A stretch of 64,000 nt of DNA, taken from positions 76,944,001 through 77,008,000 of the forward strand of contig NC_086108.1 in assembly GCF_963921235.1 (NCBI RefSeq), given 5' to 3'. Shown here piece by piece: positions 44,801-63,520 of the stretch. The position numbers and the translations under genes were made by a program. The number at the start of each line of letters is the position of its first letter. Within the stretch, counting starts at the first letter, position 1. The DNA comes from Mobula hypostoma. Its lineage: Eukaryota. The notes under the pieces are model-generated. The model had not been told where the DNA came from and ran no database searches. It was given only the letters and a program-made list of their open reading frames with translations.

Positions 44801-44939
44801 AGAGATGGTTCTTACACAAATGATGATGACTCTGTGGACATAGAAAATGAGAGTGCAAGTGGGAACAGATTTGAAGAATATGAATGGTGTGGGCAGAAGA
44901 GAATACGTGCTACAACCTTATTAGAAGGTGGTTTTCGAG
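44801..44939 (+). CDS. rnf220: RNF220 coding exon (RDGSYTNDDDSVDIENESASGNRFEEYEWCGQKRIRATTLLEGGFR-G)
   Basis: Acceptor ttttattttacag| and donor G|gtatgc. 139 nt, phase 0 to 1. Contains the RNF220 motif RFEEYEWCGQKRIRATTLLEGGFRG. Confidence 0.97.
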
Positions 44940-54600: not shown

Positions 54601-55763
54601 CCTAAATTCTGGAGCATTTTCAGTGGCAAGAGGTGAGCATTGTAAGAAAGCTGCTGTGGAAGAGGACCTCAGGAAATTTAACATTTTTGTTACCAGTGTT
54701 TGACTGGTCCCTGAAGGCATTACCAAGTCCTAAGGTGCTTACTTCATTCCTGACAAGGAATAAGATTGGCTGCCGGGACCAGGTATGAGGCTCATGTTAA
54801 GATGGTGAATGGAGGTTCTAGAAGGTCCATTATTTTTTGATTCCACTTTCAATTAAGTAACATGTTACCTATTTGGTAGCAACCCCTTTATGAACAACAA
54901 ACAATCTCTTGGAGCAATTCAGCGGGTCAAGCAGTATCTGTGGCAGGAAAGGAATTATCAACATTTCAGGTTGAAACCCTGCATCTGCTTTTTTTTTTAA
55001 CTTGTGTGTCATATGGACTTTGCCATCATTCCAGGCAGGTGCCAGCGACTATTAAGTGTTGTCCTGAATGACTTTGTGACTGATGCGCACCTTGTTTGCT
55101 GTGATCATTTGCAGATGACAAGAAGAATTGATTTTTTGTGGTTCCTGCTTTGTGTCTAAGTGATATGCAAAATATTATTCAGTTTTGTTCCATACCTGTT
55201 TTGAGATTTGTATAAAGTAGTTTTATTCTCCCTGTCCTTCCTCTATTTCCAGTGCAGCTAGACAATGGAAGGAATTTAATGTTTTTGTATTTGTTTATGA
55301 CTCTGTTTCAGACCGTTAACTATATTCTCCAAATGTGCGTATTGCCACGCCTTATATAAAAAATGATGTTAAGTGCACCATTTCCCAATGTGTAGATTGG
55401 CTTTCAAAAAGTAATTATTTGGTGTCTTTTGTTTGGTTTGAACTTGGCATTGAAAATTCAGAGGCTTACATAGAAACTAAGGAGATATTAAATATGACTT
55501 TATTTATAAAATGAATGGTTTCTGCTTGGTGAAGCAGGTAGCATTGAGCACATAATGGAACGATAAAGTATATTTTATGTTATAGTGTAGATTTGTCCAA
55601 AATATGTAAATTGGCATGTTCTCCAAAGTATGTAAAGTGTTATTTTGCCAAATATATAGAGAGAATTTTCTATTCTGATTTTAAACTTTGGTGTTATATG
55701 TACTGTGCAGAAGCAGTCTTGTTTTCACCTCATTTTACATCTTTGTTTTTGTTTTCAACATAG

Positions 55764-55860
55764 GATCTGGGTTTGTCACCTGCAGCAGTAAAGAGAATCA
55801 TGACAGTGATGCAGATCTTGATGTGGATGGAGATGACACTTTGGAGTATGGGAAACCACA
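55764..55860 (+). CDS. rnf220: RNF220 coding exon (GSGFVTCSSKENHDSDADLDVDGDDTLEYGKP-Q)
   Basis: Acceptor ttttcaacatag|. 97 nt, phase 1 to 2. DSDADLDVDGDDTLEYGKPQ motif. Ends at the non-canonical donor CA|gcatcccttt. Confidence 0.95.
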
Positions 55861-57372
55861 GCATCCCTTTTGTCAATAAATGCAGAATTGGCTTGTATTG
55901 ATTTAAAAGGTTCTTCTTTGAGGAGCCTCCTATCTTTTTTTAATATAAATAATTGTATTCGCATTTCCCCTGCAGTGGCTTAATAAATTAAAGAAAAATA
56001 AGGAATAATAGGACACATCTTCACTAGATGCCAAGCCTGGTGGTTTCCTGCTCAGACCATGGTGTTTCATCCATTGTCTCCCAGGTGCAACCTTTCGTTG
56101 GTTAGTCGGTTCTTGGCTGATCAGGAGGTCAGTGCAGTTTAATACAGTGCAAAACTTTTCTGTTCATAATTGCCCTGTTGACTCCCAGAATAGCTATGAC
56201 TGTCACCCTAAAGTTTGGTTGTCATAGCAGTTACTGACATTGAAAGCCTATGGGGCTCTTAAAAAATGAATATTGTCTTCTAAGTAAGTAGATGTTTTAT
56301 AATTTCAATACAGGTAAATATTTTGAAACTCTATAGCTAAAATAAAATAAGAGTTCTACTCCCCTTTATACTCACAGTCAATTGATTCAACAATTAAAAA
56401 CTAGATTTACAGTTACAAAGCCTCAGAACGGGAAAACCTGTGGAAGTTAGTCCCACCCAGTAAGATTCTAACGAGAGTCCATCAGTGCAGTGCAAGTGAC
56501 CTGGGAACAGTGCTGTGAGTTGGTTGCTCCACTTCAGCCTTGTAGCTGGGAGTACAGCTTTCCACTCACCAGGGCAGTCCCTGGATATCTGTGAGAGGCA
56601 CTACTCACATCCAGAATTTAACTGTCTGCTAATTCTTAAGATGGAAATCATTACCATTTGTTTAATTGTGTGCTGAACCAACATAATAATTACATAATAG
56701 ATAATATTGAAATTAAACTAAAGAAGATGACCATTCAGTCAACCATTTTGTTTATTTACTGACCAAATAAATAACTTATGTCCTGCAGTAATACCAAAGA
56801 AGAAGACTTTTAAACTTACAATTCTTTTGTTCTGTGACTGAAAGAGACAATGATTTGAGTAAGAAGGATATAAATTCCCGATGTGAAAATATTCAATTTT
56901 TTTTTGTAGTATTTAGCCACTGGAGTGCCCCTTTTACCAGATGAAAAATAAATATTGGTGCCAGGAGATGTAAATAGTGATGCAACTGTAGTTGCAACAG
57001 TAGATAATATAGTGATATAGAAAGATCTGCTTGAAGGCTGAAACTTCAAATGTTGATGGGTGAATGCCAACACAATCTAATAAACTATCTGTTGTAGTTG
57101 GCATGGTAAAGATAGATCTAAAGATTATTTCATGGTCAACTGAAATGTTGCTTGTCCAAGTTACTATCAATCTTACCTTTGCGGCTGTAGCTGTTTGTAC
57201 TATGATCATAACTCAAACAGCATTGACACAAAATATATTTCTCACGAATAGAACCAGATATAAACCAGTTTATACAAGGATGGTTTTTGAGGTTAGTGGG
57301 AAAGTTTCACAGTATAAGGGTGAAGTCTCTGAAATTCTTTTGTAGTGGGCCATTTCTTTAACTACTAAACAG
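55861..57372 (+). other. U12-type (minor spliceosome) intron with GC-AG termini
   Basis: 5' end GCATCCCTTT (U12 consensus RTATCCTTT). Branch site TTCTTTAAC at 57354-57362 (consensus TTCCTTRAC), about 11 nt before AG 57371-72, with no polypyrimidine tract. Splicing gives CA|A TAC, restoring KPQYTEAD. Confidence 0.85.
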
Positions 57373-57459
57373 ATACACAGAAGCAGATATTATACCATGC
57401 ACTGGAGAAGAACCAGGGGAGGCCAAAGAGAGGGAGGCACTACGTGGTGCTGTGCTAAA
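57373..57459 (+). CDS. rnf220: RNF220 coding exon (YTEADIIPCTGEEPGEAKEREALRGAVL-N)
   Basis: 87 nt, phase 2 to 2, donor AA|gtaagt. Near-identical to the recalled RNF220 peptide YTEADVIPCTGEEPGEAKEREALRGAVLN. Absent from the ORF track; translated by hand. Confidence 0.96.
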
Positions 57460-57734
57460 GTAAGTAGAAACACCAGTACTATCTCATTCCAGTAGAAATA
57501 TGGTCATGATGCACTGTTGGGGGCTTTTTAGTAGTTTTCTTTAGCTACATTTGCCTTTTTTTCTAATTTTTAAATTGCATCATGTGACTCACGAAATGAG
57601 CACTTAGTTGCAAAGTTGTTTCACAGAACGAGTTAGTATGTGAAATTAAAACATCACATTGCCTAATATATCTGTTGAGATTCAAATTCATGAAAAAGGA
57701 TGTTATTTATAAATGTCCATAAAAGACTATTGTG

Positions 57735-58030
57735 CAAGTCAAGCAACATCTGTGGAAGATAATAGACAGTGGATGTTACAGGCCTTGGCCTTTCTTCAGA
57801 ACTGGAAAGGGGCCAGAATCAAGAAAAAGAATGTGGAGAGAGTGGAAGGGGTACAAGCTGGCAGATGATAGGTGAGACCAAGGACGAGGTGGGTCACCTG
57901 CCAACTTGATTTCCTTACCCTCCCCCCCACTATCTTGTTCTATCATTTATTTCCTTCCCTTCCAGTCCTGATGTTGACTGTCTATTTTGTCTGATTTGCT
58001 GACTTCCTTCTCCAGCATGTGTGTGTTGCA
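57735..58030. mobile_element. Inverted pair of degenerate Penelope pLTR fragments
   Basis: Left arm gcaacatctgtgga...atagacagt...cagaactggaaagg...caagctggcagatga; right arm tcacctgccaacttg...ttccagtcctgatgttgactgtctat...tccagcatgtgtgtgttgc. Confidence 0.65.
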
Positions 58031-58321
58031 TTTCTCTATTTTGAGTACTGAAATTGAAACATGTCTGCTAAGTCACCATTTGTTTTAAATTAATTCATGC
58101 TTTACTGATTTTTTTTGTGAATTAAAATATTTATTACAGGGATGGAGATTGTTCATATCCAGTGATAGTTCCTTCTTTTGTTATATTGGTCTGAAAAAAC
58201 TGTAACCCTCTAACAAACACTCATAGCAAAAAAAAAGCATTACCTTACATTGCTGTTTCTGTCAATTATTTCATTTGTTTTTAATAAGTATGATATTTAT
58301 CACAGTATATTATTATTACAG

Positions 58322-58377
58322 TGGTGGAACTCCAAGCAACAGAATTACACCAGAATTTTCCAAATGGGCCAGTGATG
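58322..58377 (+). CDS. rnf220: RNF220 coding exon (GGTPSNRITPEFSKWASD-E)
   Basis: Acceptor ttattacag| and donor G|gtagga. 56 nt, phase 2 to 1. RITPEFSKWASD motif. Confidence 0.95.
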
Positions 58378-59151
58378 GTAGGATGAAGCTTTGACTTTAA
58401 TAGGATTTGATTTTAATACTTCCTCTGTTAGCTGTGTTTATAATGATCCACTAAATTGCTTTGAACTTTTATAGCATCCTGAATTTTAAAATCAATCTAG
58501 AAATTGACTGAGTTTAAATGATCGCCTATGAGAAATTGCTCTATTTATGGTGAATAAGGGTTGAGAAAAAGGAAAACGCTCAGCATGTCAGGCAGCATAC
58601 ATGGAAAAAGAAAGAGTGAACACTTCAGGTCAAAAACTCTGTAAAGCAGGATAGTGGGATCCGGAAAGAGCGTGGGAAATAGAGAAGAGCTGGGGACTTT
58701 CTAATGAGATCCAGTAGAGAGAGAGAGGGTCTAGTGAGAGCCGATGCTGAGAGGAAGAATGGGGTCCAGCAAGTGGCAGAGGGGAGAGGGAGATTCACCA
58801 AGGATATTGAGGAGGGGATTTTGATGAAGAGAGGGAGGTGTCTTATGTTTGATGAATATTGTGAAGAGTACAATATTTTAAGCTTTAATTTCTAATAAAA
58901 TATTTCGGGTTAATAAGTAATGATTTTTGTATGTGTTTAACTAATTAGTTCTTGAGCACTGCAATGCAATCCGTGTTTAGCAGTAAAATTAATGGCAAAA
59001 CTTTTTGATTTCTGAGTTTTCACTTACTCAATGTGTATTCCAGTGCACAAAACCTTGATCACATTGAACACCACATCTCTGGTGTACAAATTTGTATTTT
59101 TGAGAAATAGTGATATAGTTCTCAGACTTTTTACTTCTGATTTCTTTACAG

Positions 59152-62854: not shown

Positions 62855-63520
62855 TCATAGTCATAGTCATACTTTATTGATCCCGGGGGAAATTGGATTT
62901 TCATTACAGTTGCACCATAAATAATAAATAGTAATAAAACCATAAATAGTTAAATGGTAATATGTAAATTATGCCAGTAAATTATGAAATAAGTCCAGGA
63001 CCAGCCTATTGGCTCAGGGTGTCTGACCCTCCAAGGGAGGAGTTGTAAAGTTTGATGGCCACAGGCAGGAATGACTTCCTGTGACGCTCTGTGTTGCACC
63101 TCGGTGGAATGAGTCTCTGGCTGAATGTACTCCTGTGCCCAACCAGTACATTATGTAGTGGATGGGAGACATTGTCCAAGATGGCATGCAACTTGGACAG
63201 CATCCTCTTTTCAGACACCACCGTGAGAGAGTACAGTTCCATCCCCACAACATCACTGGCCTTACGAATGAGTTTGTTGATTCTGTTGGTGTCTGCTACC
63301 CTCAGCCTGCTGCCCCAGCACACAACAGCAAACATGATCGCACTGGCCACCACAAACTCGTAGAACATCCTCAGCATCGTCCGACAGATGTTAAAGGACC
63401 TCAGTTTCCTCAGGAAATAGAGACGGCTCTGACCCTTCTTGTAGACAGCCTCAGTGTTCTTTGATCAGTCCAGTTTATTGTCAATTCGTATCCCCAGGTA
63501 TTTGCAATCCTCCACCATGT
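62855..63520 (-). mobile_element. Young 5'-truncated Rex1/Babar LINE, (CTATGA)n tail
   Basis: ORF 63006-63377 (MLRMFYEFVVASAIMFAVVCWGS...RKSFLPVAIKLYN). Tail tcatagtcatagtcatac. Confidence 0.9.

Follow-up and report, generated by a model that had tools for sequence, protein, structure and literature searches.

Introduction

Few splice signals are as constrained as the donors of minor introns. U12-type introns with GC-AG ends are on record: PMC1557818 describes four in human, four in mouse and one in fly, all of them starting GCATCCT, with LZTR1 carrying a GC-AG intron in both human and mouse, and it reports that switching of the ends between species is frequent among non-canonical minor introns. 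GC-AG introns account for 0.61% of U12 introns in human and for 0-4.3% in the vertebrates listed in Table 2 of PMC7367187. Other odd minor-intron ends have been described (PMC2831892), and the text on GC-AG in PMC10639083 adds nothing specific. U2-type GC donors, for their part, compensate for the changed end by a closer match to the consensus (PMC1557818).

According to PMC11874965, SNRNP48, SNRNP35 and U11 stem-loop 3 recognise a minor donor at -1 to +4, while +5 to +10 pair with the 5' end of U11; position +2 pairs with neither U11 nor U6atac (PMC3584512, PMC11874965), and SNRNP48 cross-links to U+2 (bioRxiv 10.1101/2023.12.22.573053). C instead of T at +7 is found in mammalian minor introns such as those of SSU72, AP1M1, human SLC12A4 and human MATN1 (PMC6717393 supplement). 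It fills 31 cells of that human/mouse donor table, 30 of them reading GTATCCC and one ATATCCC, and among those listed (28 and one) it is often found in one species only; in several minor introns common to human and mouse the two species differ at +7.

RNF220 is a catalogued minor-intron gene in human, mouse and zebrafish (PMC6717393, PMC11347168), as an earlier note on the present DNA had suggested. The human and mouse introns have the donor ACA/GTATCCTTG (the slash marks the exon end) and are classed as minor (PMC6717393 supplement). The supplements of PMC6717393 and PMC11347168 give the human intron as chr1:44644795-44644994 (200 nt), the mouse intron as 177 nt and that of zebrafish rnf220a as 109 nt; Table S6 of PMC11347168 lists the minor class together with a response to minor-spliceosome inhibition in 5 of 9 human datasets, 1 of 6 in mouse and 2 of 2 for zebrafish rnf220a. 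Here we describe this intron in the ray Mobula hypostoma, where it starts with GC and has C at +7.

Results and Discussion

The rnf220a locus and the splice junction

The window, by which we mean the whole 64,000-nt stretch of DNA analysed, holds the middle of rnf220a; the RING exons lie beyond it. The exon at 44801-44939 is 100% identical to Mobula RNF220a over 46 aa and 98% identical to other rays and sharks. The features referred to below are the following.

44801..44939, + strand: rnf220a coding exon of 139 nt with a GT donor, located upstream of the exon pair; the loose end of the spliced contigs falls at its end
55764..55860, + strand: exon preceding the intron, 97 nt; ends in phase 2 inside the Gln codon of KPQ
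55861..57372, + strand: GC-AG intron, 1512 nt, very likely U12-type by sequence and orthology; joint 55860^57373 in four of four runs
55861..55871, + strand: 5' splice site GCATCCCTTTT, off consensus at +2 (C) and +7 (C)
55877..55879, + strand: in-frame TAA 17 nt into the intron, a stop if the intron is retained
57353..57362, + strand: branch box of U12 type, TTTCTTTAAC, with the branch A predicted at 57361
57370..57372, + strand: 3' splice site CAG
57373..57459, + strand: exon following the intron, 87 nt, GTAAGT donor
58322..58377, + strand: subsequent exon, 56 nt

The upstream exon ends AAACCACA and the intron opens GCATCCCTTTTG from 55861; at its 3' end it reads TTTCTTTAAC TACTAAACAG followed by ATACACA at 57372/57373, the sequence before exon 57373-57459 being TTTCTTTAACTACTAAACAG. 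Removal of 55861-57372 restores the peptide KPQYTEAD. When the junction was slid through 13 registers (-6 to +6), a recognised pair of ends appeared in only one, namely GC-AG at 55861/57372; GT-AG or AT-AC ends were found in none of the 13. The letters thus agree with the earlier note, which had described an intron starting GC, with no GT at the junction and with KPQ/YTEAD restored.

The predicted joint 55860^57373 was found exactly in transcript-like contigs of all four runs searched (two from the window's organism in one study, two from a close relative, organism B, in another), which are typed as RNA by guess, none being on record as RNA and one being flagged as probably DNA, yet with a spliced contig. 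Within region 55600-58450, one contig of about 6 kb per run also joins 57459 to 58322 (4/4 runs). Such contigs report the junction and not the efficiency of splicing, and rare forms are dropped in assembly. Over about 1,020 intron bases, organism B has 26 differences from the window; its donor lies outside contig coverage, and the GC-AG label is read from the window's DNA. In stored proteins, 483 of which were examined, the cross-junction peptide Q-Y-T-E follows in 249 of the 327 that have this exon end; most of the remainder are read-throughs into the intron.

No retained-intron contig was found in either run of the window's species, where the spliced form has depths of 22 and 38, and nonsense-mediated decay would hide retained rnf220a transcripts. 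In the two runs of organism B, contigs of low depth lie inside the intron (about 4-8 vs 217 for the spliced form in one run, 3-5 vs 73 in the other), and the next intron has no contigs apart from a repeat. We set these intronic contigs aside as evidence of retention, as the runs had been chosen for containing words of that intron and one is flagged as probably DNA. The repeat in the next intron, at 57810-57970, is a short interspersed one that draws many contigs. Strong major-type GT donors also lie inside the 1512-nt intron, at 56284 and 56314; they are unused in the assembled contigs, and it is possible that they act as cryptic sites if minor splicing is blocked.

Orthologs, paralog and the C at +2

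Gene calls on raw genomic contigs that run from the exon into the intron report the donor: Tyr after the split Gln codon means T at +2, and His means C. Such read-through peptides cannot distinguish G from A at +1 and are blind to +7; they are database entries rather than independent species and were taken from the best 120 of 807 and the best 120 of 1307 matches. Among the matches listed, 70 of 71 have Tyr and one (P0414) has His. The mammal-type read-throughs are Q-Y-P-W, as the donor ACA/GTATCCTTG encodes, and since they match the human and mouse donor the mammalian intron lies at the same position as the KPQ junction. The coelacanth reads Q-Y-P-F.

A scan of metagenome contigs gave two RNF220 loci, one teleost-like (L017) and one bird-like (L018). 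The teleost-like contig, which stops short of its 3' splice site, has the donor GTATCCTTTA, in a longer reading GTATCCTTTAC. At L018:3113-4125 the bird-like locus has a minor intron of 1013 nt with the donor GTATCGTTTTTG, in which +6 is G, and a perfect TTCCTTAAC branch box; its exon peptides match 51 stored proteins, of which the named ones are nearly all from birds and one is from a marsupial. The window's genome also holds a diverged rnf220 paralog (L031, minus strand; G000:C81, about 24.18-24.23 Mb). Its donor GTATCCTTTG, in the exon context AA/GTATCCTTTGC, starts with GT, follows the minor consensus and stands at the same phase-2 place; its branch site and acceptor were sought and could not be located with confidence.

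The ray intron is the ortholog of the RNF220 minor intron catalogued in human, mouse and zebrafish; the two have in common the gene, an exon ending in ACA, phase 2, and a donor core and branch box of U12 type. It differs in that the human and mouse introns have GT with T at +7, whereas the 1512-nt ray intron has GC with C at +7. As GT, or T at +2, is found in human, mouse, the teleost-like copy, the coelacanth and the paralog of the same genome, GT is likely ancestral and GC derived.

This raises the question of whether the GC might be an assembly error at 55862 or a private allele, with GT as the true donor. Four DNA runs, which may be the assembly's own source, hold a share of 1.00 of 197 words sampled from the stretch; about 3.4 of these words are expected to lie over 55862, and under random sampling the chance that none covers it is 0.026. 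Independently of these runs, P0414, an unrelated record on two contigs, reads K-P-Q-H-P-F-C as the window does, a peptide that only C at +2 can give. In the last 42 bases of its upstream intron there are 7 or more differences from the window, with similarity lost beyond. On the peptide evidence, C at +2 is thus common to the window and at least one more distant cartilaginous fish, the taxon of P0414 being taken from its exon peptide. In favour of an error, the donor of organism B lies outside contig coverage, as said above. We conclude that the C at +2 is real and not an assembly slip; the error or private-allele reading, the first of which the earlier note had named as a refuter, is already largely refuted and in our view almost certainly wrong.

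Recognition of the donor and branch site

A loose version of the donor pattern occurs four times on the + strand of the 64,000 bases. The donor motif alone is thus unremarkable, and it is the position at a spliced junction and the orthologs that carry weight. Against the extended donor RTATCCTT (the consensus, in agreement with the human/mouse donor table), GCATCCCT matches at 6 of 8 positions, differing at +2 and +7. U1 could pair at 3 of 11 donor positions only (-1.3 kcal/mol), while three GT donors of rnf220a give -5.8 to -7.7 kcal/mol; the exon ends CA, not AG. The earlier note had likened the donor to the U12 consensus and not to that of U2.

The window's genome has genes for U11, U12, U6atac and U1, and in their donor- and branch-pairing arms the best U11, U12 and U6atac genes equal the Rfam consensus, so that these snRNAs carry no compensatory change (4 of 4 U11 and 8 of 18 U6atac matches were inspected, the weaker ones looking like decayed copies). 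At the other end of the intron, the duplex computed for the branch box and the U12 of this genome has -6.4 kcal/mol with A57361 bulged. This predicted branch A lies 11 nt from the last intron base, as the earlier note had estimated, and within the optimum of 11-13 nt from the 3' end (PMC3584512). The note's further remark that there is no pyrimidine tract is too strong: it holds for the ten bases directly before CAG, 3 of which are pyrimidines, but over -22 to -4 the share is 0.63, inside the range of 0.58-0.74 measured for three other rnf220a acceptors.

All energies given here come from a simple nearest-neighbour calculation, which takes no account of proteins or of U11 helix H. The C at +2 has no effect on the computed duplexes; since +2 is read by SNRNP48 and U11 stem-loop 3, it would instead alter a protein contact. 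In the textbook register, C at +7 costs one pair, or about 4 kcal/mol, taking U6atac from -7.1 to -2.9 and U11 from -6.1 to -1.9 kcal/mol. However, CCCUUUU complements the U11 arm one base over, with -8.2 vs -6.5 kcal/mol for the 10-nt end and -4.5 vs -3.7 kcal/mol when only the single-stranded 6 nt are allowed to pair. Register-shifted pairing is known for U1; we met no precedent for a shifted register in the U11 literature consulted. The earlier note had called this an unusually weak U11/U6atac site. That is half supported: U6atac pairing is predicted to be weaker at +7, but U11 could pair as well or better one base over; C at +7 occurs in mammals, and +2 pairs with neither snRNA.

Type of the intron

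With a branch box that pairs with U12, minor orthologous introns, and U11, U12 and U6atac in the host, the intron is very likely minor-type as far as sequence can tell. Like the U12-type GC-AG introns of PMC1557818, it has GCATCC at +1 to +6, an AG end, a U12 branch box at a fitting distance and a non-U2 exon end. In that source, all such introns read GCATCCT; ray rnf220a reads GCATCCC and so lacks the T at +7, which is a description of that set and not the rule by which it was searched. From these introns a second deviation beyond GC was unexpected, because all of them have T at +7. The intron has C at +7 in common with the +7 C minor introns, and the same CCCTT run as human SLC12A4 and MATN1, but those introns keep T at +2 where the ray has C. 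With U2-type GC-AG introns it is alike in its terminal dinucleotides, whereas those depend on pairing strongly with U1 at the other donor positions, and such pairing is absent here.

Could the intron nevertheless have drifted to a hybrid state, in which the major spliceosome takes it out, in whole or in part, as a U2-type intron with GC-AG ends? Such ends are much more frequent in U2 introns (PMC7367187), and the pyrimidine share upstream of the acceptor is like that of the other rnf220a acceptors; in addition, at the place where minor introns prefer a second C the branch box carries T, which in minor-like introns has been linked to handling of the major type (PMC11347168). Yet the compensating consensus match that U2-type GC donors display (PMC1557818) is missing, with U1 limited to the 3 of 11 positions given above and C/A rather than A/G at -2/-1, and stronger GT donors at 56128, 56284 and 56314 go unused in the assembled contigs. 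We consider removal by the major spliceosome very improbable.

RNF220 does not appear by name in the passages and tables on U12-type GC-AG introns that were consulted (PMC1557818, PMC7367187), and in the literature we found neither a GC donor in RNF220 nor this intron in cartilaginous fishes; online intron databases may already list it. The combination of a GC start and C at +7 in one minor intron was not found in print. GC-AG minor introns being already known, what is new is that a catalogued minor intron has both GC and C at +7, and that birds have another off-consensus form of it.

A tolerated variant or a regulatory valve

We suggest that the minor spliceosome likely removes the GC-AG intron of rnf220a, and that this is likely the old RNF220 minor intron of vertebrates, with a tolerated change from GT to GC that arose within the cartilaginous fishes. 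U12 would pair with the branch box, leaving A57361 bulged. The pairing of U11 would span +5 to +11 in one of two ways: in register, with a single mismatch at +7, or shifted by one base, where six pairs are perfect. Positions +1 to +4 would be held by SNRNP48 and U11 stem-loop 3, which would tolerate the C at +2, and U6atac would then take over with a C-A mismatch at +7. Molecules left unspliced would meet the stop 17 nt into the intron and, as the RING exons are further downstream, would encode no RING domain. Splicing is apparently good enough, with the spliced form dominating. The junction in four of four runs (with the reservation on their typing made above), minor orthologs, a paralog with GT, the poor U1 pairing, and the known GC-AG class with its switches of ends all support this proposal, and other off-consensus donors of the RNF220 minor intron elsewhere fit with tolerance. 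Against it, C at +2 has been kept in a relative with at least 7 differences in 42 bases of neighbouring intron, as selection would also give, and the second deviation at +7 is not what the introns of PMC1557818 would lead one to expect.

The earlier note had gone further and proposed a possible regulatory valve upstream of the RING exons. In such a scheme the donor would be kept weak on purpose, as a rate-limiting step on RING-bearing RNF220, and lineages would have weakened it differently, by C at +2 and +7 in the ray and by G or A at +6 in bird- and reptile-like copies. [quoted passage not shown] Human RNF220 does skip both flanking exons, in up to about 20% of events in one tissue column of the PMC6717393 supplement. 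The loss of U6atac pairing in the textbook register and the C at +2 common to the diverged P0414 would both suit a weakened donor. The bird-like donor GTATCGTTTTTG is predicted to pair poorly, its best U11 duplex being -2.5 kcal/mol vs about -6.5 for ordinary donors and its U6atac pairing also poor; GTATCG occurs once in the human/mouse donor table. Changes at +6 are seen in 14 Y-R and 5 Y-H of the 71 read-throughs, among the matches listed, which suggests that donors with G or A at +6 are widespread in animals related to L018.

Direct support for a valve was not obtained, however. Donors are ordinary in human, mouse, coelacanth, the teleost-like copies and the paralog; only the spliced form was assembled in the window's species (two runs); U11 pairing need not be weaker, given the register shifted by one base; and a comparison of the ray intron with that of bird-like L018 gave no conserved element, the score of 21 being reached by 93 of 100 shuffles. 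That odd donors recur is as compatible with relaxed constraint as with tuning. We therefore regard a purposely weak donor as unlikely, although deserving of some weight. It is also unlikely that the RNF220 minor intron became a dose valve for the RING ligase by being weakened separately in cartilaginous fishes (+2 C, +7 C) and in birds or reptiles (+6 G or A), with the ray donor pairing U11 one base off the textbook register. A tolerated variant of an old intron, rather than a new regulatory switch, is the likely nature of the rnf220 GC intron.

By itself the RNF220 GC donor reveals no new mechanism, but it is a useful test substrate. A natural, correctly spliced donor changed at +2 (the position of the protein and U11 stem-loop 3) and at +7 (that of U11 and U6atac), together with the bird-like change at +6, makes a ready series within one intron, which can be used to test the flexibility of the minor spliceosome and the slip of the U11 register. 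Catalogues based on motifs may miss or misclassify the RNF220 minor intron in these lineages.

Further observations

Some annotated isoforms of other vertebrates skip, in frame, the three exons around the minor intron (240 nt; the equivalent of window 55764-58377), and others in the same group of proteins (P0086, P0260, P0285, P0048, P0049, P0469) lack just the 87-nt exon or have a different acceptor close by. The minor intron may have misled the annotation in some of these cases. P0124, an 'RNF220-like' stingray protein whose gene lies on another chromosome, groups with rnf220a and is possibly a retrocopy; the window's genome showed no copy like it.

The genome of the window (G000; L003-L005, L007-L013) holds many decayed U6atac copies, with 18 matches, and a few U11 copies. 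Several of the U6atac copies are followed by similar repeat-like sequence, suggesting that they are retroposed chimeras. On the minus strand at 63006-63464, the window has a fragment resembling the end of what we take to be a LINE reverse-transcriptase reading frame. Finally, the residues of the fungal RING protein P0361 at the aligned junction are Q-Y-P-L, which is how a minor donor left unspliced would translate; judging from this one record, the position of the RNF220 intron may be far older than the vertebrates.
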